A DNA stretch of 64,000 nt from an uncultured Candidatus Berkelbacteria bacterium (GCA_903851235.1 CAINNR010000015.1:11327-75326); one strand, 5' to 3'. Shown: positions 8,753 to 20,159, counted from the first letter of the stretch. The notes: generated by a model not told the origin, from the letters alone. Numbers and translations are program-made.

Positions 8753-10120
8753 ATGAGACCGAGAGCGCTGTTACAGGCATTGTTGGTTTCCGGTGACGTT
8801 CAAGCCGCGGTCAGATTAGCACAACAGGAAATGGGACGCAACTTAACAAATCGCGAGCTGTTTCTGACGGCTAATCGCTTAATTCGCTGGGCGATAAAAA
8901 ACGGCTCTGATGATTTAATGCCGACCGAACCCAGCGGCACAATCGTTAATGGGCTGATATCCGACGTAGCCAATCTACTCGGGTCGCAGGCAAATGAGTT
9001 GTATGAGAAAATCTGCAATGCATTTTGCGACACCTGCGAACAAATGTTTGGGATTGATTCAGCGGGTCGATATCTGTCGGATGCGATTTATTGGTGTCAT
9101 ATGATTACCGACGTTCGACGGAGAAAACGGATCGGGTGCCGGATCTTGTCATTGGCAATCAACGGCGGTTATCTCAGCTCGGCGGACGATATCGCAAGTT
9201 TTTTGAGAGTAACGATCAGCCCGATCCACCGACTTTACTGTTTGATACTGTGTAGCGACCGAAATCTTTGGGAGAAAGAAGTTTTCCAGCATGAATATCG
9301 TCGCTGTTTCTGCGGCGAAAAAGCCGAAGTGCAAGAGCAGATAATCTCTTTGGTTGTTGATCGATTGGCAACCAACGGTCACATTCGAGTAGCGCTGAAA
9401 ACTGCCATTCCGCTTCTACCGGCAGAAAAGCGCCGTGGATCGTTGGAAAAAGCGGTGGAGGAAATTGTCTCAGGCGGCGCTTGGTACGAAGACATCGTAA
9501 ACGACCTAAGTGAACTTGGTCGGCCTCTGACAAAAAAAGAGATTTTGGTCTGGATTCCCAATCACATGCAGACCAGAGCATCCGGAAGCTTTATTAACGC
9601 TCGCAGAATGATTTTTACTCTTCGGAAATCGGAAATGGAACAAGCAAAGGCGACACTTTACCAACTCCGATACCTAAATTCCGATGAAATTTTAAAAGCC
9701 ACACGACACATCGGCAGTAAGCGTATTCGCCACCAAATTCTTGAATCACTGTTTTTCTCATTATTGGAACATGACATGTATCTGGAAGAAAACCAGCGAA
9801 TAGACTATACCTATCAGAAGATTAACGATTTCAGCGCCGATCTTGGTTGGGTTCGTGATCAAAGACGGCTTCACCGGCTCTTCCGCGAAGCCTGTAACAA
9901 ACGCCAGCAAATAGATTATGCCCATTCTATGTTGCCGGTATTCCGACCGTCGGATAAGATTTGGGCTACTGAGATGTTGATTGCCTCTCATATTTGCTTC
10001 CGCGACGCTTCAGATGGGCGGACTCTTGCGCTTGAACTTGCCACAACGCTTCCACCCGAACTGGCGACAAAATATCAACAAATTCTCTCCAAGCCGGTAA
10101 AAGTTGAAGTTGCCGAATAG
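8753..10120 (+). CDS. hypothetical cytoplasmic protein (455 aa, Cys-rich)
   Basis: Long ORF with AAGGGA RBS, own promoter-like TTGATT/TATAAA upstream and a terminator downstream; no recognisable domain. Confidence 0.4.
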   Translation: MRPRALLQALLVSGDVQAAVRLAQQEMGRNLTNRELFLTANRLIRWAIKNGSDDLMPTEPSGTIVNGLISDVANLLGSQANELYEKICNAFCDTCEQMFGIDSAGRYLSDAIYWCHMITDVRRRKRIGCRILSLAINGGYLSSADDIASFLRVTISPIHRLYCLILCSDRNLWEKEVFQHEYRRCFCGEKAEVQEQIISLVVDRLATNGHIRVALKTAIPLLPAEKRRGSLEKAVEEIVSGGAWYEDIVNDLSELGRPLTKKEILVWIPNHMQTRASGSFINARRMIFTLRKSEMEQAKATLYQLRYLNSDEILKATRHIGSKRIRHQILESLFFSLLEHDMYLEENQRIDYTYQKINDFSADLGWVRDQRRLHRLFREACNKRQQIDYAHSMLPVFRPSDKIWATEMLIASHICFRDASDGRTLALELATTLPPELATKYQQILSKPVKVEVAE

Positions 10121-10132
10121 CATAAACACGCT

Positions 10133-10161
10133 GCCCCGATACCGCATCGGGGCGTTTTTTT
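10133..10161 (+). terminator. rho-independent terminator
   Basis: gccccgat-accgc-atcggggc hairpin followed by TTTTTTT, 13 nt after the stop. Confidence 0.65.
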
Positions 10162-10240
10162 CTGTCGGCTATTGTATTATCGGAAAAAATCGGTAATAAT
10201 CAAGTCACCTCGTAGACACCCGACGATTGGAGGGTAACAG

Positions 10241-10777
10241 ATGACCATCAAAGATGTTGTCAAGCAGCGGAACAACATTAGGAAAGCCTGCTGGGGAGTT
10301 CTGTCCAGATATCCATCAGCAATTGAAGATCTGGTCGAAGATATCATTTTCCACATCGCCGGTAGGTTGGATAAATTCAGAGCTGAGAGTTCATTTGAGA
10401 CTTGGGTCCATCGAATCGCTACCAACCAAGCGATCAACAAGCTGAAAAAGCTGAAAAAAGAGGAGTGTTTGTCGCTTGATGCCTCAATTGGTGGCACAAC
10501 AGAGGATATCGATTTTGTCGACGTTTTGCTCGGCGACGGTCATTACGACCCTATGCCATCAATAGGGAGATTTCACGATTTGGAAACAATTCGCAATTCA
10601 CTCGCTTGGCTAAGGGAACACCACAATACGAATTATCGAGCGCTTTCGTTAGTTGTAGTTTACGGTTTTAGTAATCAATTTGCAGCGGAATATCTGGGTA
10701 TTTCACCGACATCAGTCCGGACAAGAATATTCCGAGCTAGAGAATCATTACGAAAAAGATTGGTTACTGAGAGATAG
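10241..10777 (+). CDS. ECF-type sigma-70 family RNA polymerase sigma factor
   Basis: Region 2-like WVHRIATNQAINKLKK and region 4 HTH YLGISPTSVRTRIFRARESLRKRL; GGAGGG RBS. Confidence 0.65.
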   Translation: MTIKDVVKQRNNIRKACWGVLSRYPSAIEDLVEDIIFHIAGRLDKFRAESSFETWVHRIATNQAINKLKKLKKEECLSLDASIGGTTEDIDFVDVLLGDGHYDPMPSIGRFHDLETIRNSLAWLREHHNTNYRALSLVVVYGFSNQFAAEYLGISPTSVRTRIFRARESLRKRLVTER

Positions 10778-10809
10778 AACCTATGGTCTCGCCCAGTGCG
10801 CGACCTTTT

Positions 10810-11937
10810 TTATTTGCTATTTTCTTCGATTATTTTCTTATAAACCTTGGCGCTTTTGCGCGGCTGGCGATTAATATCATGCAGACCGAATTTCATTGTG
10901 TACCCACTCGACCATTCAAAATTGTCAATCAGAGACCAGTAAAAGTAGCCTCGAAGATCGGTGCCATCGGCGATGGCACGAGATAATTGCGAAAGATTGC
11001 CTTGAATAAATTTTTGGCGATCGACGTCAGCGGCCGGCGTGCCGTTTTCTGTTAGGTAGATCGGTAATCTCCAGCGCTTGGCCTCGATTAGCAGCTGATA
11101 TAGACTGTCGGCAATTTTTCCGCTTAGAATCGGCTTTTTCGCTTGAACTTTGTATGAGGCGTAGGAGTTAATACCGAGAAAATCAAGTTGCTTTCGGATT
11201 CGGCCGATAAAATATTCATTGACTATCCATCTTGCCAATCGGCTCAAGATTCGATCAAAAATATTTCGTCCGGCCGGTAAAAACGCGGTCATATTCATCG
11301 CAATTCCTACCTTGACCCTTGGATTGGCCTTTTTCATACTAATGTATGCTTGTTTATGAGCGGAAATTTGGTTAAAAAATGCCTTGACCCCAAGGATATA
11401 ACTCTTCTTTCCTGGGCACCAATCAGCAATAAAATAGCCTTTGTTGATATAGACATTCGGCTCATTTAATACCGACCATAATTCAACCGATCGCCCGAAC
11501 TCCTGCGCCATCCGGCCGGCAAAGCGAGCAAAATAGTCGATGGTTTTTCTGTTGGTAAATCCACCGATGTCGGCGACCCAAAGTGGAAGAGTGAAGTGAA
11601 ATAACGTCACCATCGGCGTGATATTATTTTTATTCAGTTCGTCGATCATTTCCCGATAGCGACCGATAACTTTTTTGTCAAAAAAACCTGGCGTTGGCTC
11701 GATTCGCGACCATTCGATGGAAAATCGATAGGCGTTTTGCGAAGTATTTTTCAGTAGTCGGATGTCTTGGCGCCATTTGTTCCAACTATCGGCTGAAATT
11801 TCTGATGTTCTGTGATCTGAAACATTGCCGGGAATTTTTTCCCAGCGCGCCCAATCGTTATTTAAATGACCTTCTATTTGGTGTGCCGCAGTCGCGGCAC
11901 CAAATAGGAAGTTTTTTGGAAATTTGAGTTTATGCAT
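10810..11937 (-). CDS. glycoside hydrolase family 1 beta-glucosidase
   Basis: FLFGAATAAHQIEG N-terminal signature, acid/base LNEP and nucleophile YLTENG motifs. Start moved to the Met preceding KLKFPKNFLFGAA (complement 11935..11937). Confidence 0.8.
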   Translation of the reverse strand: MHKLKFPKNFLFGAATAAHQIEGHLNNDWARWEKIPGNVSDHRTSEISADSWNKWRQDIRLLKNTSQNAYRFSIEWSRIEPTPGFFDKKVIGRYREMIDELNKNNITPMVTLFHFTLPLWVADIGGFTNRKTIDYFARFAGRMAQEFGRSVELWSVLNEPNVYINKGYFIADWCPGKKSYILGVKAFFNQISAHKQAYISMKKANPRVKVGIAMNMTAFLPAGRNIFDRILSRLARWIVNEYFIGRIRKQLDFLGINSYASYKVQAKKPILSGKIADSLYQLLIEAKRWRLPIYLTENGTPAADVDRQKFIQGNLSQLSRAIADGTDLRGYFYWSLIDNFEWSSGYTMKFGLHDINRQPRKSAKVYKKIIEENSK

Positions 11938-11980
11938 TTGATTTTTATATTGCCGGGATGACAGGATTGTTGACTGGGAA

Positions 11981-12289
11981 TTATATGTTATCGCTATCAA
12001 TGCTTTCTTGCATATAACGATAAACGATTGAAATAATTTCGCGGATATCGCCGTTGACATTTTTATATATTAAATTGTCAAAAGCAATATTTTTAAATTC
12101 ACGAATTGGGTCACTGATTAGGGCATGAATGAAAGATTGCGTTGCCCCATTTACACCACCAAAATCGATAATGACTTCATTTTGCTTCAATAATGCCGGC
12201 ATAAGCTGTTCTATCCTTATTCTTTTGGCAATGTCCTTGTTTTCAGCAAAATCTCCGGCCATTCTTTTAATTTTAATAAGATTTTTCAT
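11981..12289 (-). CDS. STAS-like DUF4325 protein (partner of GHKL ATPase)
   Basis: VIIDFGGVNGATQSFIHALI matches the DUF4325 core; start overlaps the upstream ATPase gene by 4 nt (operon). Confidence 0.5.
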   Translation of the reverse strand: MKNLIKIKRMAGDFAENKDIAKRIRIEQLMPALLKQNEVIIDFGGVNGATQSFIHALISDPIREFKNIAFDNLIYKNVNGDIREIISIVYRYMQESIDSDNI

Positions 12290-13254
12290 ATAAATCTTGG
12301 TCTCCTGTATTTCTCGCGTTTGCGTTCACGGATAGCTTTGTCATAAACTACACCGATGCCAGTCAATAATTCATTAAATTCTGGAGTTTCGTCAAGCGAA
12401 ATATCCACCGCTACCAATGTTCCCTGAAAACTTGGCGCATTATTTATTTCGCCATGCGGATCTCTACTTGGGTCGGCATATAATCTTGGCACCCCCTTGA
12501 TTCGTTTGTTATGCTTATGAAGAGTATATTCGGCACTACCACTATAAATAGCAAAGTAATTACGGGTAATTTTCGCTATCGACTTAACAAAGAACAATCC
12601 GGCGCCGGCATTTTCAGCAGTACCTCCTTCGCGTCTCGTTGTGCCCGTAATTCCTGGTGTTAAAGCCAATTTTATGGCTTCGATATGTGTTTTGGGATGC
12701 CAGTGAGTTTGTAAACTTTTCCAAATACCGATACCGGTATCGCAAATTCCGATACTGACCCGATTGGTTTTTTTGTAATATTGAGCAGCGACGACGGCGC
12801 CGCTCTTTGCAAAAGAGTGTTCCAGAACGTTTCTTACTAACTCACCAAAAATATATTTAATCACTGTCGCGTTTTTTTCTGATAGATGTAGAAGTGGAAT
12901 CATATCGGTAATAAAATGAGATTGTTCTTCAGCTGTTTTAATAATTTTAATAGGCAGGAATCGTCCGGATTCTTCTTTTTTATGATAATGAAATGGTGAA
13001 GATGTTTTTACAAAGTTAAAAAGCCCCATTCTGTCTAAATATCGTCCTGTGTCAGGAATGTCGCCAATAATTTCTGTGTTTTTCATACCAACTTTGATCG
13101 CCAGTGCAACTACCAAAACAAGATTAGCTGGATGAACAGTAATCCATTTATTATGAGTTGTTATCTCTAGTTTTCTTGGGTTTGAAAGGTCAAGAGATTC
13201 TACAAATTGTCGAAAATTTCGCAGATTCCCTTGATTTGATAAAAATATTCTCAT
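12286..13254 (-). CDS. GHKL-superfamily (histidine-kinase-like) ATPase, anti-sigma/serine-kinase-like
   Basis: N-box GELVRNVLEHS, G1 DTGIGI, G2 GAGLFF in the C-terminal half; about 150-aa N-terminal extension of unknown function. Confidence 0.6.
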   Translation of the reverse strand: MRIFLSNQGNLRNFRQFVESLDLSNPRKLEITTHNKWITVHPANLVLVVALAIKVGMKNTEIIGDIPDTGRYLDRMGLFNFVKTSSPFHYHKKEESGRFLPIKIIKTAEEQSHFITDMIPLLHLSEKNATVIKYIFGELVRNVLEHSFAKSGAVVAAQYYKKTNRVSIGICDTGIGIWKSLQTHWHPKTHIEAIKLALTPGITGTTRREGGTAENAGAGLFFVKSIAKITRNYFAIYSGSAEYTLHKHNKRIKGVPRLYADPSRDPHGEINNAPSFQGTLVAVDISLDETPEFNELLTGIGVVYDKAIRERKREKYRRPRFI

Positions 13255-13534
13255 AAGTATACTTTACCCGTCAGATGATTTTGTGTCAATAGGCACTCTA
13301 CGGGTAATTACTCCATAGGAGATCAGAATGTGAAATTGGATTTAGGCTAAATATGGCATAGTCAGGGTATCTCAATGCAATCACCAGCAAACCCCAGCAC
13401 AAATACTTATTGTACAAATCACTCGAATAAGGAATTCTCGGCAGAAAAGATAGTCGCTGTCCCCAAAAGAAAGTATTTGGGAAATTTGAGTTTGTCCATT
13501 TGGTTGTATTTTCTGGCGGACTGGATGCACTTCA

Positions 13535-13570
13535 CTTCGAATACCTTTTTGTCTGGCTTGACCAGTTAAG
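13535..13570. repeat. left copy of imperfect direct repeat flanking the AbiE cassette
   Basis: cttcgaatacctttttgtctggcttgaccagttaag; 33/36 identical to 15259..15294. Weaker similarity extends about 35 nt further on the left (tgtccatttgg..ggcggactg vs tgtctcatttggcgggctg). Confidence 0.6.
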
Positions 13571-13633
13571 GAAGACATACGATTCCGATAACATTTGCTA
13601 AATCACACCACAGATAATTTTGTCTGCGTCAAA

Positions 13634-14350
13634 TTAATTACTTTCGTTTATTAACCCTGGTTTGTCAGCATAAAGCTTTAAGCGAAAAAGCAGGTCGGAA
13701 ATCATTTTTGTTTTAACGTAGTTTTTTTGCTTGATATCTAGAATTTCACCTAAACCTTGTAGAATATTTAGCGTCCCTTTATTTTTTTCGAGGTAACCGG
13801 CCATCTTACTGAAGTATGCCGGTAATTCCATCCCTGTTCGACTTAAAATGATTTCTTTTTTAATCGGCCAATCATTGTTGAGAAAAAACCAACAGTCGAA
13901 CCAGTCACGATTCACCATTATTTTACGATCAAAGATAGCAACTAATTTATTGGCCGCAAGACAGTCTTTGTCCATGACTATAATCGGCAGACCATAATAT
14001 TCTTGAATGTTATAGGTATTTTCCGTATTTACCCTTTTTGAAATTTCGATTTTTATGCTGTGATCACCGTTTTTGTATGAGAGGCGGAAAAAGATCGTAT
14101 TTTGTTTGATCATTTCATCTTTGATATCCCCATACTTTATGGCAATAGATTTAACTTGATCGAAGATTTGTTGGTTATTGTCTTGAGATAAAAGATCAAA
14201 GTCCAAATCTGTCGAGAATCTTGGCAGATTGTAAAAAAGATAAGCCGCCGTGCCACCTTTAAACCCGAGCTTTTGGCTTAAACTCGGTTCACTGTAAATA
14301 TCAAATAGTATTTTTGTCATAAAATTTTCATGCACGGCTCGATCAAGCAT
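13634..14350 (-). CDS. abiEii: AbiEii/AbiGii-family nucleotidyltransferase toxin (type IV TA / abortive infection)
   Basis: LGFKGGTAAYLFYNLPRFSTDLDFDL matches the DUF1814/AbiEii signature; overlaps upstream abiEi by 8 nt. Confidence 0.7.
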   Translation of the reverse strand: MLDRAVHENFMTKILFDIYSEPSLSQKLGFKGGTAAYLFYNLPRFSTDLDFDLLSQDNNQQIFDQVKSIAIKYGDIKDEMIKQNTIFFRLSYKNGDHSIKIEISKRVNTENTYNIQEYYGLPIIVMDKDCLAANKLVAIFDRKIMVNRDWFDCWFFLNNDWPIKKEIILSRTGMELPAYFSKMAGYLEKNKGTLNILQGLGEILDIKQKNYVKTKMISDLLFRLKLYADKPGLINESN

Positions 14351-14927
14351 AATTTTCCTTTAGTCTTTTAATTTGTGATAAAAGTCGTTTATTAGAATAA
14401 GCCCGTGCGATCCGAAGACACAAATCCCAGTCGATATCGGTCAATTGATCAAAAACAAAATCTGGCGAGAGATAGAGAGTGTCGACAATCGACCTTTCCT
14501 TGGAAGCCACGGTTTTATTGCCAAGAAAGTGTATTCCAGCCGGATTGAGAAGGATTGGACCTTTAATTTTTTTATATACATATTCCGTATTTCCAACTGT
14601 AATCGACCGGCTTTGGTTTGAAACCGAATATATCCTTGAATCATATTGAAAATTGATTCCATTTTGCGCTAGAGCAGAATACAGGCCGAAATAAGACGGG
14701 GTAATCATTTTATTGGCCAGTTCAATCTTGTCATAGTTTTTACCAAGAGCGTAAAATCCCTTGCGAATGAGGAAGAGTTTTTGCGATTTGATCAAGCGGT
14801 TAATCTTTGTTTTAAGATAGTCATCTTTGTCAATCCGCCAAATTAAACTTAGGTCTTTAATCGAAAAGACGGTTTTTTGGCTTCGATAAAGCAAAACAAT
14901 TGGGTCTATTTTATTAGCTGATGTCAT
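14343..14927 (-). CDS. abiEi: AbiEi-family antitoxin/transcriptional regulator
   Basis: Length and IKDLSLIWRIDKDDYLKTKINRLIKSQKLFLIRKGFYAL winged-helix-like N-terminus typical of AbiEi; operon with abiEii. Confidence 0.6.
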   Translation of the reverse strand: MTSANKIDPIVLLYRSQKTVFSIKDLSLIWRIDKDDYLKTKINRLIKSQKLFLIRKGFYALGKNYDKIELANKMITPSYFGLYSALAQNGINFQYDSRIYSVSNQSRSITVGNTEYVYKKIKGPILLNPAGIHFLGNKTVASKERSIVDTLYLSPDFVFDQLTDIDWDLCLRIARAYSNKRLLSQIKRLKENYA

Positions 14928-15258
14928 ATATAAGTTATCAATAATGATTACCTATATTGTATATTATCAAATTAAATTTGTCAATAGTCACCGGCTCTTT
15001 GTCTCAATTTTGGCATAATATCAAATTCGGGGGGCTAAATTACCGGGTTTTGATGCATCAGTAGTAGATAATTGATCATTTATTTGCAGAAACTTGTAAT
15101 TAAATGGCTTAGAAGGATTTACAGGACTTACTAAACAGCCATTTTCAGACCCCATATTTTGCTATTAAGCCTTATTTTTAGTCCATTTTACAGAGCAATT
15201 TTGGACTTGCAGCCGATGAAACCTGGTCTTGTCTCATTTGGCGGGCTGAAACAATTTC

Positions 15259-15294
15259 CTTCGAATACCTTTTAGTCTGGTTTGACCAATTAAG
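15259..15294. repeat. right copy of imperfect direct repeat flanking the AbiE cassette
   Basis: cttcgaataccttttagtctggtttgaccaattaag; see 13535..13570. Confidence 0.6.
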
Positions 15295-15365
15295 ACAGAT
15301 TTTCAACATTCTCTGAATTTGCTGTCCTGCGTCCTTCAGTCTTTAATTGTTCCGATTATTTTGGT

Positions 15366-15662
15366 TCATTGTTCACGAATGACGAAAGATCGTTTATTGA
15401 TCTCTTGTAGAATCTTTAATGTTGCCTGTACCGACATGTTATCGCTTGGTAATAATACTAATTTATCTCCAAGTTGCTCAAATAAGGGGCCTAAAAATTC
15501 GTCCCCCCAAGAAGGGGAAAAAGTCAAAACGCCGGAGAAATCAATTTCCAAATTTTCATTTGGCTTAATGCCTTTGAATGCCGGTTGAAAAGCCTTGAAA
15601 GCTTCAAGTCCGGCTTGGCGAGAAATAAGTGTTGTCCCAAATTTTTTTAGTTCTATTAACAT
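15366..15662 (-). CDS. STAS-like DUF4325 protein (second copy)
   Basis: LEIDFSGVLTFSPSWGDEFLGPL core; immediately downstream of the HTH-GHKL ATPase gene. Confidence 0.5.
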   Translation of the reverse strand: MLIELKKFGTTLISRQAGLEAFKAFQPAFKGIKPNENLEIDFSGVLTFSPSWGDEFLGPLFEQLGDKLVLLPSDNMSVQATLKILQEINKRSFVIREQ

Positions 15663-15693
15663 AGATTTGTCCTTAATTATTTTATGATTAATA

Positions 15694-16413
15694 TTAGAAT
15701 TGGATTATAGCGGAACAACCCCTGAACATCTCTTGCCCGCGGGTAAGACGAAACTCCCTACCAGGCGACTTAATTCGAACTTCGGCATCTCCACTCTCAA
15801 AGAATAGGTCAATTGGCTGAGTTGTGGTAACTTCTCGAACAAACTTTAATCCATTTCCGCGTTTTTCCGGAGATCGTCCCGAGAGGATCTCTGTAAAGGC
15901 AACCTTAACTGCTTCAGTGTGATTTTTTAATGTAGGGCGTACCTGACGAAGTGTCTCCAAAATACCAAGACCACGGTCAGCAAGCACAATCTGCTTTTTG
16001 TTAATATCATATCCGAAAAAAATACCCGGCACATCCGGCCACTTCCCAAGATTGTGATCAAAGGAATTGTTTCCTATTTCACCAGTAATAGCAATGATAA
16101 CTGAAAACAATTTCTCAAAACCAGGTTGCTCCATCAACAATAATTCCAGCCTTGATAGCCTAACTTGAAAAACTGCGCTATTACTACAGTAAAATGCGGA
16201 AGGGAATTCCGAGCCCTCTTTCGCCCAATTATGAGCAAGCTTAACATTGTCACTTGAAAATATTTCAAGATCATTTTCTCTATAAAATCTGTGTACTCCC
16301 CCTTGTTTTCTGATCGCGACAAGCTTTCCACTACTGTCCCAGCGGCGGAGTGTGTCAATTGAAACACCAAGTATTTTTGATGCTTGAGAAATTGTAAGTA
16401 GTTGTTCTTCCAT
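15694..16413 (-). CDS. MerR/excisionase-type HTH fused to GHKL-family ATPase
   Basis: N-terminal ISQASKILGVSIDTLRRWDSSGKL HTH; C-terminal N-box GEIGNNSFDH, G1 DRGLGI, G2 GNGLKF. Confidence 0.55.
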   Translation of the reverse strand: MEEQLLTISQASKILGVSIDTLRRWDSSGKLVAIRKQGGVHRFYRENDLEIFSSDNVKLAHNWAKEGSEFPSAFYCSNSAVFQVRLSRLELLLMEQPGFEKLFSVIIAITGEIGNNSFDHNLGKWPDVPGIFFGYDINKKQIVLADRGLGILETLRQVRPTLKNHTEAVKVAFTEILSGRSPEKRGNGLKFVREVTTTQPIDLFFESGDAEVRIKSPGREFRLTRGQEMFRGCSAIIQF

Positions 16414-16446
16414 AATTTACCTCTGTAAATATATTAACACGAGATG

Positions 16447-16499
16447 TTAAACTATGCAAGTTTGTCATAAAACTATGCAAGTAATAGTTAAACTATGGA
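16447..16499. repeat. three 21-nt-spaced direct repeats (candidate operator) upstream of HTH-GHKL gene
   Basis: ttaaactatgcaagt (16447-16461), taaaactatgcaagt (16468-16482), ttaaactatgga (16488-16499); 34-86 nt upstream of the start at 16413. Confidence 0.4.
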
Positions 16500-16679
16500 T
16501 TTACACAACAACCTGAGATAGTTAACATCAATTGAAGCTTAATTTTCACTAACTAGAATTGTTAATTTTTGTTTGACGACAAGATTCGAACACATCCAAC
16601 CTGTAGTATTATTTTACATAAACAAGAAAAACTGTAAAAAAGACTCTTTTTTCATTACTCAAACATGGTGTTTATCTCA

Positions 16680-16757
<78 letters not shown>

Positions 16758-16772
<15 letters not shown>

Positions 16773-17015
16773 AAACTTTTTTATTATCTCCAATTTTTCT
16801 TTCCGCCCAGCCGAATGTTTTAAATACCACTCTCTTTTGCAAGCTTCCGATCGGGAATCGAACGATTCGGAATAAATCAACTTCCATGGTCTAAACGGTT
16901 TGGTTGATTTCGCTCCACCATGGTTATGTTCAGCCAATCTGCGATTCTGGTCGGTTGTTATTCCAACATAATGACGTCGTTTGGAGTTTTCTATCATGTA
17001 GACAAAATATTTCAT
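16758..17015 (-). CDS. GIY-YIG nuclease-superfamily protein (UPF0213/YhbQ-like)
   Basis: YFVYMIENSKRRHYVGITTDQNRRLAEHNHG matches GIY-x10-YVG...R..EH; the last 15 nt overlap the tRNA 3' region, so the true stop may differ. Confidence 0.55.
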
Positions 17016-17123
17016 ATAATTTCTTGATCGATTTAACTTGGCTACGCTTGGATTATAGCTGATAGTTTGATAAGTTTCAATAAAAAAAATCCTCAGATTA
17101 ATGCGGATTTTTTAATAAAAATT

Positions 17124-17360
17124 CTATTTGTAAGTGTTTTCATTTCTTCGTGAAATTGTCAACACAGTAATTTTCCCCTCGTCAATACGATATATAATAC
17201 GCTGGTCACCCAGTCGAAGGCGAAAAACATCGCCCCTGTTCTTAAGTTTTTTAATGTCCAGTCCTACAAGATTATTTGAAAAAAGTTTTGATAACACACT
17301 CTTGATATTCTTTCGCTCTTTCTCCGATAATTTTGCCAGTGCCTTTTCAATTTTATCCAT
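17124..17360 (-). CDS. RelE/ParE-family type II toxin
   Basis: RLRLGDQRIIYRIDEGKITVLTISRRNE C-terminal pattern typical of RelE/ParE. Confidence 0.65.
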   Translation of the reverse strand: MDKIEKALAKLSEKERKNIKSVLSKLFSNNLVGLDIKKLKNRGDVFRLRLGDQRIIYRIDEGKITVLTISRRNENTYK

Positions 17361-17369
17361 TTTTTTTTC

Positions 17370-17597
17370 CTATAATCGGCTCAGCAAATCCTCGATTGCA
17401 ACTCCGCCTTTTTGAATTTTAGTAAAGTCAATCACTTCTTCCCATAATTCTTCCTCGTCGTGGTTAATGGGACAGATACGAAAAACCGGTTTGGATTTTT
17501 TTACCACCAAAAAACAATCGCCGGCAGCAATTTTCTTTTCGTAAGCAGGCAAATTTTCTCTTAATTCTTTTAGACCGATTATTTTTTCCATACACAA
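17370..17597 (-). CDS. putative Phd/YefM-like antitoxin
   Basis: 75-aa acidic protein immediately upstream of the RelE-like gene with a 9-nt gap; classical antitoxin position. Confidence 0.45.
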   Translation of the reverse strand: MCMEKIIGLKELRENLPAYEKKIAAGDCFLVVKKSKPVFRICPINHDEEELWEEVIDFTKIQKGGVAIEDLLSRL

Positions 17598-17668
17598 AGT
17601 TTAACTTAAGATAAACTTTGTGTCAATAACTATAAATACAGTGTGATAGTTCAGTAATCTGACAATGA

Positions 17669-18541
17669 TTATTTTCTCTTTCTCACCGTGATTTCCACCC
17701 CTTTAGCTCGTTCGCGCTTTTCGTCTGACTCGATCATTTTTTGATGCTCCGGGTGAAGCTCGGTTCCATCATCAGCGGCTGAATTATCAATTGTGTACTC
17801 CGGAAGTTCGGAAATCGGCACATCGGGAAATTTGCCCCAAAAGCCAAGTTTGTAATGCCAGTTGATATACCACTGCTGAAGAATCATCACCAGCGATGTG
17901 ATCACCCAGTATATTGCCAGGCCGGAGGGAAGCTGTCGGGCGATAAAAATTGTGATTAATGGGAAAAAGTAGATTATCTGCTTGTTCATCATCGCCATCG
18001 GATCGTTCGTGCCCTTCGATTGCGGTGGTTGCGGCATCATCTTAGTTTGGACAAATTGCAGAGCGCCGGCAACAATCGGCAAAATCCAAAGATCCGGTTT
18101 GGAAACATTAATTCCGAGAAAATTCAGATTAATTCCCGACGGTTTTGGAATGAAATGATAAAGAAGATTTAGGTGATCAAGATTGAAACCGATCAAAATC
18201 ACTCGGTAAAAAACAATTAAGACCACCATTTGAACGATCAGTGGCAAACAACTGCCGTAGGGCGAAACTTTGTGTTCTTTAAATAATCTTTGCATCTCCT
18301 GCGACATTTTCAACTGATCGGTTTTGTATTTCGCTCGAACTTGATTTAACAACGGTTGAATTTTTTGCATTTCGATTGTCGATTTTGAGGCTTTAAGTGA
18401 CGTCGGCAACAAAATTATCCGTATAATTATAGTCAAAAGAATAATCGCCAAGGCGACCTGATGCCCGGGAATAACGGCAACGAAATACATCAGCATGTTA
18501 TAAAACGGAATATAGAGAATTGTGGTAAAAAAATGAGCCAT
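17669..18541 (-). CDS. yidC: membrane protein insertase YidC/Oxa1 (short Gram-positive type)
   Basis: Five TM helices, conserved C-terminal basic tail, synteny with yidD-rnpA-rpmH. Confidence 0.85.
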   Translation of the reverse strand: MAHFFTTILYIPFYNMLMYFVAVIPGHQVALAIILLTIIIRIILLPTSLKASKSTIEMQKIQPLLNQVRAKYKTDQLKMSQEMQRLFKEHKVSPYGSCLPLIVQMVVLIVFYRVILIGFNLDHLNLLYHFIPKPSGINLNFLGINVSKPDLWILPIVAGALQFVQTKMMPQPPQSKGTNDPMAMMNKQIIYFFPLITIFIARQLPSGLAIYWVITSLVMILQQWYINWHYKLGFWGKFPDVPISELPEYTIDNSAADDGTELHPEHQKMIESDEKRERAKGVEITVRKRK

Positions 18542-19387: not shown

Positions 19388-19412
19388 TTGTTACATTTGT
19401 GAATGTCGGAAT

Positions 19413-20033
19413 CTAGAAGTTGATCTTGAGGCTGCCCTCGATACGGGCGGTGTCAGTAGTCTTATTGTTCACCCCCCACAGGTAGCGGAGCGACAACGAG
19501 CTACCACCGGGGCCGCTGATCTCGACTTTCGGACCGACGCCCAGTGTATTCCCGGTCCCTTCCTGCCAACAGTTCGAGACGGCAACGCCGACTCGGACAT
19601 TGTGGCGGACCGGATGACTGACGGCCACCTGGTTCGTGTACAGCACCCAGGGGCCGTTGTTGAGGGGAATATAGGCACCACCTGCGGACTCAAACTTCCA
19701 GTCCGATCCCAGCTCGTGGTTGTACACCCAGAACGGCTCCGCGAAGAGCTGGGACGACTTGTCCCACCATGAGACATAGCCACCCAGCAGCAGTGTGTCA
19801 CTCTTGCCGGCCTTCACAGGCCAAAGGCGGCCTGCTTCGTAGACCGGGAAGTCCGGCTGAGAGAAAGACCACAGCTCCCAGCCGCTGGCATCGAGCCAAG
19901 CGCTGGTCAGACCAGCGTGCCCACCTCGGGGCATGTCCACACGCCCAAGGAGCGTGCCATCTGCGTGGGCGACGGCGGACGACAGAACCAACATCATCAA
20001 GGCGACGAACAGAACAGCGGTGCGTTGCATCAT
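19413..20033 (-). CDS. high-GC ORFan: secreted protein with signal peptide, C-terminal Phe (beta-barrel-like)
   Basis: Roughly 60% GC versus roughly 40-50% in flanks. Start at MMQRTAVLFVALMMLVLSSAVAHA with AGGGAGG RBS. Alternating hydrophobic pattern, ends ...IEGSLKINF. Inserted between rpmH and rnpA. Confidence 0.5.
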   Translation of the reverse strand: MMQRTAVLFVALMMLVLSSAVAHADGTLLGRVDMPRGGHAGLTSAWLDASGWELWSFSQPDFPVYEAGRLWPVKAGKSDTLLLGGYVSWWDKSSQLFAEPFWVYNHELGSDWKFESAGGAYIPLNNGPWVLYTNQVAVSHPVRHNVRVGVAVSNCWQEGTGNTLGVGPKVEISGPGGSSLSLRYLWGVNNKTTDTARIEGSLKINF

Positions 20034-20098
20034 ACTGGAAACGCCTCCCTCTGCTTGGTTTTTTGGTACCAAGCGACCGGATATGACTGTGTATGGGC

Positions 20099-20127
20099 AT
20101 TATAGCAAAAGTATATACTTTTGTCAA
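20099..20127 (-). promoter_or_regulatory. consensus sigma70 promoter driving the high-GC ORF
   Basis: Minus strand TTGACA (20122-20127), 17 nt spacer, TATAAT (20099-20104). Confidence 0.5.
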
Positions 20128-20128
20128 C

Positions 20129-20159
20129 TAAAAAAGAGCCTCTTGGACTCTATTTTTTT
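20129..20159. terminator. bidirectional hairpin, likely rpmH terminator
   Basis: agagcc-tcttg-gactct hairpin flanked by AAAAAA upstream and TTTTTTT downstream on the plus strand. Confidence 0.4.

Follow-up and report, generated by a model that had tools for sequence, protein, structure and literature searches.

Two self-contained kinase-STAS cassettes related to CapK-CapS and VapK-VapS in a Candidatus Berkelbacteria genome

We analysed a 64,000-nucleotide stretch of DNA (one strand, 5' to 3') from an uncultured Candidatus Berkelbacteria bacterium (GCA_903851235.1, CAINNR010000015.1:11327-75326), with a focus on two gene pairs between positions 11,981 and 16,413. The whole stretch is called the window below, all coordinates are positions in it, and K1/S1 and K2/S2 are our names for the two pairs. 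Comparative analysis identified K1-S1 and K2-S2 as two mobile, self-contained cassettes of the CapK-CapS/VapK-VapS superfamily. We propose, with a probability of about 0.5, that they are independent kinase-STAS cassettes that repress themselves, that the kinase is their likely output, and that they are wired neither to the nearby extracytoplasmic function (ECF)-type sigma factor nor to the AbiE genes lying between them. All four open reading frames (ORFs), with the ATPase gene upstream of the STAS-like gene in each pair, were present as the first-pass annotation of the window had described them:

12286-13254, minus strand: K1, ORF of 322 amino acids (aa), kinase-like protein.
11981-12289, minus strand: S1, 102-aa ORF, DUF4325 (VapS-type STAS) partner.
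15694-16413, minus strand: K2, 239-aa ORF, fusion of a helix-turn-helix (HTH) and a GHKL domain.
15366-15662, minus strand: S2, 98-aa ORF, DUF4325-like STAS partner.

The K1 stop and the S1 start overlap by 4 bp, and K2 and S2 are 31 nt apart.

Chambers et al. (EMBO J 2026; PMC13373217) characterised CapK/CapS and VapK/VapS/VapC. In their account, CapK is an HTH-STAS-GHKL kinase that is turned on by single-stranded DNA (ssDNA) and phosphorylates Ser54 of CapS, a repressor composed of STAS and winged HTH (wHTH) domains, whereupon adjacent immune operons are de-repressed; VapK (STAS-GHKL) phosphorylates VapS (STAS only), which releases the PIN toxin VapC; and about 20% of capKS loci follow restriction-modification systems (PMC13373217). 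The first-pass annotation had called DUF4325-ATPase pairs poorly characterised; with these two systems described and VapS a DUF4325 protein, that statement is outdated. Using the CapK, CapS, VapK, VapS and VapC protein sequences (Appendix Table S2 of PMC13373217), we found that K1 aligned by BLASTP with CapK (E=5e-7) from the STAS domain through the N box and G1 (YLDRMGLF versus YLNRLGFF), and with VapK (E=3e-5) over the GHKL domain to the C-terminus. A profile of K1 and 51 full-length relatives, drawn from the search of 1.84 billion representatives described below, matched VapK at 59.6 bits in a collinear alignment (18-289 against VapK 29-286) and CapK at 55.7 bits.

K1 begins with a STAS-like domain (about residues 1-85), followed by a GHKL domain, and also has a basic segment (residues 247-253) and a basic C-terminal helix. 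In K2, a winged HTH of the BldC/excisionase type (residues 5-45) is joined by a helical linker to a kinase-like GHKL domain (about residues 100-239); a STAS domain was not found in K2, whose AlphaFold 2 (AF2) model contains an HTH, two helices and a GHKL domain only. The hidden Markov model (HMM) for HATPase_c scored K1 at 22.8 bits, under the family cutoff, and the Pfam search of K2 gave no ATPase match. The ATPase domains proposed in the first-pass annotation were therefore not recovered above threshold by HMM, and it is the motif boxes, the identity between the kinases and the fold that uphold the GHKL assignment. The boxes, whose absence would have told against the first-pass annotation, were invariant in both kinases: E138/N142 (N box), D172/G174/G176 (G1, DxGxG) and G217/G219 (G2, GxGL) in an alignment of 31 K1 homologues, and E112/N116, D146/G148/G150 and G186/G188, respectively, in 32 K2 homologues. 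The K1 and K2 cores are 31% identical (E=2e-10), and it is on this identity, the invariant boxes and the GHKL fold matches that we assign K2 to the ATPases.

The AlphaFold model of K1, trustworthy only for residues 1-170, had SpoIIAB, SiaB and UsfX as its top PDB fold matches, and RsbV fitted the N-terminal beta-alpha-beta domain; phmmer searches of K1 and S1 against PDB sequences gave no match. Foldseek matched the K2 model (predicted local distance difference test score, pLDDT, 74.6) to GHKL ATPases and its HTH to BldC (37-38% identity, root-mean-square deviation 2.4). The K2 HTH also matched BldC in the PDB by sequence (6amk), MerR/HTH_17 in Pfam over residues 1-53 and HTH_BldC in NCBIfam, in agreement with the MerR/excisionase-type HTH that had been noted on one ATPase. 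A PADLOC match of K2 to 'mad1' was set aside as the generic excisionase-type HTH only; a MADS preprint describes mad1 as a widespread regulator whose deletion has limited effect. Separately, K1 residues 38-245 matched positions 44-247 of the 1750-position PADLOC 'DrmA' model PDLC02567 (DISARM helicase; E=4e-15), and CapK and VapK gave no match to this model. Some DrmA-type proteins may carry an N-terminal K1-like STAS-GHKL module.

S1 and S2 each consist of a STAS-like domain alone, without a wHTH. S1 scored 42 bits on Pfam DUF4325 (cutoff 23), and S2 fell slightly under the cutoff with 22.0 bits (E=1.4e-4), so the DUF4325 label given to both in the first-pass annotation is clear for S1 and borderline for S2. 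VapS, with 62.7 bits, is a strong DUF4325 member, which places S1, S2 and VapS in one Pfam family; the S1 family profile also matched VapS. PADLOC has no model for S1 or S2. In the S1 family, T50-Q51-S52-F53 is invariant in 65 distinct sequences, making Ser52 the candidate phospho-acceptor; in the S2 family, T47, S51 and W52 are invariant in 60 distinct sequences, and the candidate is Ser51 in S49-P50-S51-W52. Profile alignment placed S2 Ser51, a serine before an aromatic residue, on the CapS acceptor Ser54, with VapS Ser48 one residue earlier, and the conserved serine of S1, S2 and VapS lies at the start of the second STAS helix. Together with the K1 fold matches, this alignment bears out the resemblance to anti-sigma kinase/anti-anti-sigma pairs that had been pointed out earlier. 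The further suggestion of a duplication fared less well. S1 and S2 had no detectable similarity by BLASTP and the kinases share the GHKL core only, so that the pairs represent distinct subfamilies, and a recent duplication was rejected.

To place the cassettes in a wider context, we fetched about 160 related loci (80 K1 loci and 80 K2 loci). In 79 of 79 loci, the gene directly after K1 was an S1 homologue overlapping it by 4 bp as in the window, and S2 was the conserved downstream partner of K2 in 62 loci. K1-like kinases with a C-terminal DUF4325 domain also occur as natural single chains (P0258, 451 aa; P0371, 424 aa; P0373, 422 aa), Rosetta-stone evidence that K and S work together. When window positions 10000-18000 were compared by blastn with all fetched loci, similarity was confined to 11950-13350 and 15350-16500. 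Each cassette thus spans its own promoter to the S stop codon and no further. A two-gene pair was also found outside Patescibacteria, in Clostridioides phage ES-S-0173-01 (113-kb unannotated record, CP067352.1, about 81367-82580; L178, 2468-3681), where a 308-aa STAS-GHKL gene is followed after 14 nt by a 90-aa DUF4325-like gene (...ISNSFADE...) with the same motifs; the next gene is a convergent HTH-TPR gene.

K1 relatives were 75-87% identical and nearly all exactly 322 aa long. They came from metagenome-assembled genomes labelled Pacebacteria, Moranbacteria, Gottesmanbacteria, Nomurabacteria, Woesebacteria, Levybacteria, Shapirobacteria and Saccharibacteria. Scanning one genome per GTDB species with a K1 alignment gave 379 matches with a patchy distribution (K1 as a single sequence gave none), and a search of 1.84 billion representatives returned 2568 hits at E<=1e-3. 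K2 relatives were 58-89% identical and were found on more than 582 metagenome contigs. Taken together, the cassettes recur in hundreds of Patescibacteria genomes and metagenome contigs (60-89% identity), every time as a K-S pair. Members from different classes of the candidate phyla radiation (CPR) were 75-81% identical and variants of 62-67% occurred inside Saccharibacteria, which indicates transfer. The genes flanking K1 fell into 360 clusters and were unique in nearly every environmental locus. The flanks of K2-S2 were likewise variable, with Fic (5x), RhuM, methyltransferases, serine recombinases and many housekeeping genes. As in a generic type II toxin-antitoxin (TA) system, each cassette is a mobile, patchily distributed and apparently autoregulated two-gene operon, with operators over its promoter, sharp boundaries and varying contexts.

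These data also bear on whether the pairs are domesticated, vertically inherited signalling modules of Patescibacteria, for example an ATP- or energy-state partner switch serving a general process. Purifying selection is very strong (mean column identity 84% for K1 and 79% for K2), synteny is kept within oral Saccharibacteria clades, K1 neighbours are mostly housekeeping genes, and mobile-element hits are scarce: viral-contig hits were few, and tblastn of K1 gave nothing against plasmids and two distant hits only against phages. All of this would suit domestication. The patchy distribution, the signs of transfer, the sharp cassette boundaries in unique contexts and the phage-borne pair argue against it, as do the presence here of two different cassettes among AbiE and ParE/Phd genes and the finding, described below, that within the window the cassettes appear to regulate themselves only. 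We consider domestication unlikely.

Indications of self-regulation came from the promoter regions. For K2-S2, sequence inspection, a repeat search and the related loci defined the following features:

16431-16500, minus strand: K2-S2 promoter and operator.
16490-16500, minus strand: K2 direct repeat 1, ATCCATAGTTT.
16470-16480 and 16449-16459, minus strand: K2 direct repeats 2 and 3, both TTGCATAGTTT.

The repeats have a period of 20-21 bp, two helical turns, and the promoter consists of a -35 TTGCAT (16454-16459, inside the last repeat), a 17-nt spacer and a -10 TAATAT (16431-16436). Among related loci, 61 of 74 had at least three coding-strand copies of RTAGWTW in the 160 bp upstream of K2; the mean per locus was 3.23, against 0.30 in shuffled sequence and 0.09 for the opposite strand. 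Neighbouring copies were spaced by 20-21 bp in 137 of 166 cases. Two repeat types were present, TGCATAGWTT and TG(G/T)GTAGATT, and in 57 distinct proteins the repeat type was perfectly predicted by K2 residues 14 (I/K/L/F versus Y) and 20 (D versus N), each with a normalised mutual information of 1.0. The next-best positions, 19 and 9, are also in the HTH helices; position 10 reached 0.39, and every other position was at or below 0.45. Overall K2 identity was 0.78 within and 0.71 between repeat types. This is strong comparative evidence that the BldC-like HTH of K2 reads the TGCATAGTTT repeats over its own promoter, and K2 appears to repress that promoter. Reading of direct repeats fits the kinship with BldC, since BldC binds direct repeats as cooperative multimers (PMC5859096).

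The K1-S1 promoter was defined by a promoter scan, upstream sequences and an alignment of 55 loci:

13261-13305, minus strand: K1-S1 promoter and operator.
13293-13305, minus strand: K1 operator left arm, ACCCGTAGAGTGC.
13266-13278, minus strand: K1 operator right arm, TCATCTGACGGGT, its inner part degenerate in the window.
13284-13289, minus strand: K1 promoter -35, TTGACA.
13261-13266, minus strand: K1 promoter -10, TAAAGT, six nt ahead of the ATG.

The operator is a 13-bp inverted repeat with the consensus ACCCGTAGAGTGC ... GCACTCTACGGGT that flanks the -35 and extends into the -10. Across the 55 aligned loci 87.6% of cells paired, versus 28-47% in slid registers, and the inner triplets co-varied (TGC/GCA, CGT/ACG and TAC/GTA). 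No recognisable DNA-binding domain was found in K1 or S1. Residue 249 of K1, in the basic segment K-H/Y-x-K-R-I/V-K adjoining the 17-residue insertion relative to VapK, tracked the operator type: K with TGC, D with CGT and R with TAC. Its normalised mutual information was 0.93 overall and 0.90 in 25 environmental sequences, in which K1 identity was 0.80 within and 0.76 between operator types. Because neither protein has a known DNA-binding domain and residue 249 tracks the operator, we tentatively suggest that K1 itself reads its own operator, via the basic segment at about residues 247-253. Many loci (L019-L023, L029, L030 and L035-L037) have a second CCCGTAG...CTACGGG palindrome upstream of the promoter-proximal copy, about 60-110 bp upstream of K1, which recalls the two CapS sites in capKS loci.

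In the 64-kb window, no further copies of the K1 or K2 operator were found; each occurs only at its own promoter. In most loci (L003-L082 for K1 and L083-L162 for K2) the -10 ends only 6-12 nt before the start codon, so that the mRNAs of both cassettes seem to be leaderless or near-leaderless. The leader of K2 in the window is about 10 nt longer and has a GAGG motif.

The surroundings of the pairs contain the following further features:

16682-16772, minus strand: tRNA-Ser(CGA).
14343-14927, minus strand: AbiEi (Pfam and PADLOC).
13634-14350, minus strand: AbiEii (Pfam and PADLOC).
10241-10777, plus strand: ECF-type sigma factor (Pfam and PADLOC).

In the direction of transcription the order is tRNA-Ser, K2, S2, a 438-bp gap, AbiEi, AbiEii, a gap of about 380 bp, K1, S1 and a GH1 glycosidase gene; on the upstream side, tRNA-Ser is preceded by a GIY-YIG gene, a pair resembling ParE/Phd and the yidC-yidD-rnpA genes. 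Both pairs thus belong to a small accessory cluster beside a tRNA gene in a genome that the source names of the closest homologues place in the Patescibacteria (CPR), and AbiE is indeed bracketed by them, as had been noted. The K2-S2/AbiE/K1-S1 cluster starts directly downstream of tRNA-Ser, which suggests an integration hotspot. We infer that the adjacency of the two cassettes is an accident of this accessory-gene cluster.

AbiEi and AbiEii (13634-14927) form a complete type IV TA/abortive-infection cassette (PADLOC E=7e-43 and 8e-60). A near-consensus promoter of its own (TTGACA-17-TACAAT, 14956-14984), strong in the promoter scan, precedes it, and a terminator-like hairpin (13609-13628) stands directly after abiEii; the AbiE cassette appears to be independent of the kinase cassettes on either side. 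The GIY-YIG nuclease-domain ORF (16758-17015, minus strand, 85 aa) overlaps the 5' end of tRNA-Ser(CGA) with its last 15 nt. A further TA pair lies between tRNA-Ser and yidC at 17124-17597 (minus strand): an antitoxin gene with weak Phd/YefM likeness (75 aa) comes first, and a gene resembling ParE toxins (78 aa, Pfam 29.7 bits) follows. A short patch at 19400-20130 is GC-rich (0.54 versus about 0.38 in its surroundings); several of its frames hold long ORFs that overlap, among them a 219-aa ORF (19413-20072) without a Pfam match.

This layout allows the possibility that the cassettes are controllers of the CapKS type which switch on adjacent downstream cargo upon damage or infection, with K2-S2 driving AbiE in the window. 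In its favour are the homology of the pairs to CapK/CapS, the placement of K2-S2 immediately upstream of AbiEi/AbiEii in the same orientation, a 438-bp gap in which no terminator-like site was found, and the presence of Fic, RhuM, methyltransferases and recombinases among K2-S2 neighbours. On a 389-kb CPR contig (L001, 3165-7597), K2-S2 comes right after an AlwI-type restriction-modification system, with a RadC-methyltransferase fusion, the restriction enzyme and an N6/N4 methyltransferase, and is followed by a convergent Fic gene, which echoes the placement of some capKS loci after restriction-modification systems (PMC13373217). However, the downstream gene differs at nearly every locus and no third gene recurs in K1 or K2 loci. 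The gene downstream of S was co-directional in 66-73% of loci, equal to upstream genes, and convergent in 27-34%, which indicates a background strand bias and not an operon signal. Similarity between loci stops where S ends, the wHTH by which CapS represses cargo promoters is absent from S1 and S2, and AbiE, present in three of the roughly 160 loci, has its own promoter without a K2 repeat. AbiE was accordingly judged unlikely to be regulated cargo, and we regard cargo control as improbable in general.

The first-pass annotation had favoured either a partner-switching circuit controlling the ECF sigma factor and the defence genes, or a two-component defence/TA-like module in its own right. The sigma gene at 10241-10777 is real, has no obvious anti-sigma factor and lies 1.2 kb from S1, and the SpoIIAB-like and RsbV-like folds would suit kinases acting as its anti-sigma factors and so controlling defence genes. 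Against this, no homologue of the sigma factor occurred in any of the roughly 160 loci, and in the window the gene is on the opposite strand, with the GH1 glycosidase gene between it and S1, and the cassettes are discrete and end before it. As a rule, ECF sigma factors are under the control of dedicated anti-sigma proteins and not of SpoIIAB-class kinases. We rejected this link as extremely improbable, and the low count of AbiE, the variable flanks and the restriction of the operators to the cassettes' own promoters in the window also count against a circuit controlling defence genes. Directly upstream of the sigma gene, on the same strand, a 455-aa protein without a Pfam or PADLOC match is encoded at 8753-10120 (plus strand); it is possibly an unrecognised partner or anti-sigma factor of the sigma factor. 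The other suggestion, a module in its own right, is supported as far as discrete, self-contained cassettes are concerned, and a TA or defence role is plausible.

It could also be that the pairs are VapKSC-type systems that are incomplete or have degenerated, their toxin gene being lost or lying unrecognised nearby, a view to which the match of K1-S1 with VapK-VapS in architecture and gene order lends some weight. No VapC/PIN homologue or recurrent third gene was found in the 80 K1 and 80 K2 loci, though, and the strong purifying selection on both genes, across hundreds of genomes, is not expected of remnants. We consider degeneration very unlikely.

Our preferred reading, two self-repressing cassettes with the kinase as output, would work as follows. 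In each cassette, K would be a SpoIIAB-class GHKL serine kinase and the small DUF4325 STAS-type protein S its partner. K would bind S and phosphorylate the invariant serine (S1 Ser52, S2 Ser51), as CapK does with CapS and SpoIIAB with SpoIIAA, and phosphorylation would break the K-S complex. K2 would act as an autorepressor through its BldC-like HTH on the three direct repeats covering the -35, and K1 through the basic segment at about residues 247-253 on the inverted repeat whose arms lie on either side of the -35 and reach into the -10. Cassette expression and the amount of free kinase would both depend on how much K is free, how much is in complex with S and how much S is phosphorylated, a balance that would itself be set by ATP and a stress or infection cue. 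For the STAS-bearing K1 this cue may be ssDNA, by analogy with CapK, because K1 has retained the STAS-GHKL arrangement from which CapK builds its ssDNA groove. The kinase would then act on a host or phage target, with S as both cognate inhibitor and consumable substrate. Since there is no toxin, no DNA-binding STAS protein and no conserved cargo, the kinase itself is the most likely output, and with S as inhibitor and substrate the cassettes would be TA-like or defence-like accessory modules. This last step is plausible and is the weakest part of the reading.

A bolder version, unlikely in our estimate, would make the cassettes minimal 'kinase-timer' TA or abortive-infection modules in which the GHKL kinase is sensor, autorepressor and toxin at once. 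The kinase might then arrest growth by tying up the housekeeping sigma factor, or through phosphorylation of targets in the host or the phage. The STAS antitoxin would be inactivated by its own toxin's phosphorylation, not by proteolysis, and the kinase would be freed when S synthesis is blocked by phage takeover or cassette loss. If true, this would be a new class of TA logic with a wide spread among Patescibacteria, whose genomes are reduced, and human oral Saccharibacteria would be among its carriers.

Several points weigh against our preferred reading of self-repressing cassettes. The right arm of the K1 operator in the window is partly degenerate (8 of 13 positions), and the co-variation of K1 residue 249 could be explained in part by shared ancestry. 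The K1 model is of low confidence over residues 175-277, which covers the proposed DNA-reading segment, so we make no structural claim for that segment. Kinase activity of K1 and K2, beyond plain ATPase activity, is predicted from homology, and K2 is without the STAS domain from which, together with its GHKL domain, CapK forms the ssDNA groove. No phosphatase was present among the recurrent neighbour families, and the module came without a phosphatase or effector. PADLOC models matched a small minority of immediate neighbours, so that defence-gene enrichment around the cassettes, and with it the defence-island association, is weak. Synteny of K1-S1 was seen only within oral Saccharibacteria clades, and 143 non-redundant K1 neighbours matched 140 different Pfam families, mostly housekeeping; both findings would fit a domesticated regulatory role.

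The forms described here go beyond those in the part of the CapK/VapK paper available to us (PMC13373217) in several respects: a STAS-GHKL kinase that has no effector and whose DUF4325 partner is bare, a fusion of a BldC-type HTH to GHKL without STAS, a wide spread in Patescibacteria and, as we propose from the co-variation, operators read by the kinase and not by the STAS protein. New here is a conserved operator over each cassette's own promoter, with variants that co-vary with kinase residues. It was not until 2026 that pairs of a GHKL kinase and a STAS protein were tied to immunity in bacteria, and the forms concerned all had an obvious output, the repressor domain on CapS or the VapC toxin; the two stripped-down forms in the window have neither. 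The K/S cassettes are among the most conserved accessory genes across Patescibacteria. To our knowledge, few regulators are known from these bacteria with tiny genomes, and hardly any of their defence or stress circuitry has been characterised. They include cultivable human oral Saccharibacteria, and the operators, the specificity residues (K2 14 and 20; K1 249) and the candidate phospho-serines provide experimental handles. The natural K-S fusions and the phage-borne pair suggest a general, portable switch, and the kinase as effector, if true, would be a new TA or defence logic.

Compared with known systems, K1-S1 is like VapKSC in that K1 has the VapK architecture (STAS and GHKL, without an HTH), is collinear with VapK and comes first in the gene order; S1 and S2, like VapS, are STAS-only DUF4325 partners with a conserved serine. 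The window differs from VapKSC in that K2 has no N-terminal STAS domain and that no VapC PIN toxin follows as third gene, the downstream genes being GH1 and AbiEi. K1 differs from VapK in its 17-residue insertion, basic segment and basic C-terminal helix, as well as in its palindromic operator, which is apparently read by the kinase, and in its spread in Patescibacteria and not Proteobacteria. With CapK-CapS, the cassettes share the pairing of a GHKL kinase with a STAS substrate and operator sites in their own promoters, and K2 shares the N-terminal HTH. CapS, however, carries a DNA-binding wHTH and is the repressor, whereas in the window S1 and S2 are bare STAS proteins and it is to the kinases that the DNA-reading determinants map; neither kinase has the full HTH-STAS-GHKL architecture, K1 lacking the HTH and K2 the STAS domain. 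K2-S2 lies upstream of AbiE here, and the related loci have no consistent downstream immune operon and few PADLOC matches.

[quoted passage not shown] Unlike these switches, the modules have no linked sigma factor or PP2C phosphatase, K1 and K2 are larger, with an extra STAS or HTH domain, and the cassettes are mobile self-regulating units and not part of a developmental or stress regulon. BldC, a MerR-like developmental regulator of Streptomyces (PMC5859096), is the closest relative of the K2 HTH by sequence and fold, and K2 is likewise associated with direct and not inverted repeats. BldC is a stand-alone protein of 68 residues, whereas in K2 the HTH is fused to a GHKL kinase domain.

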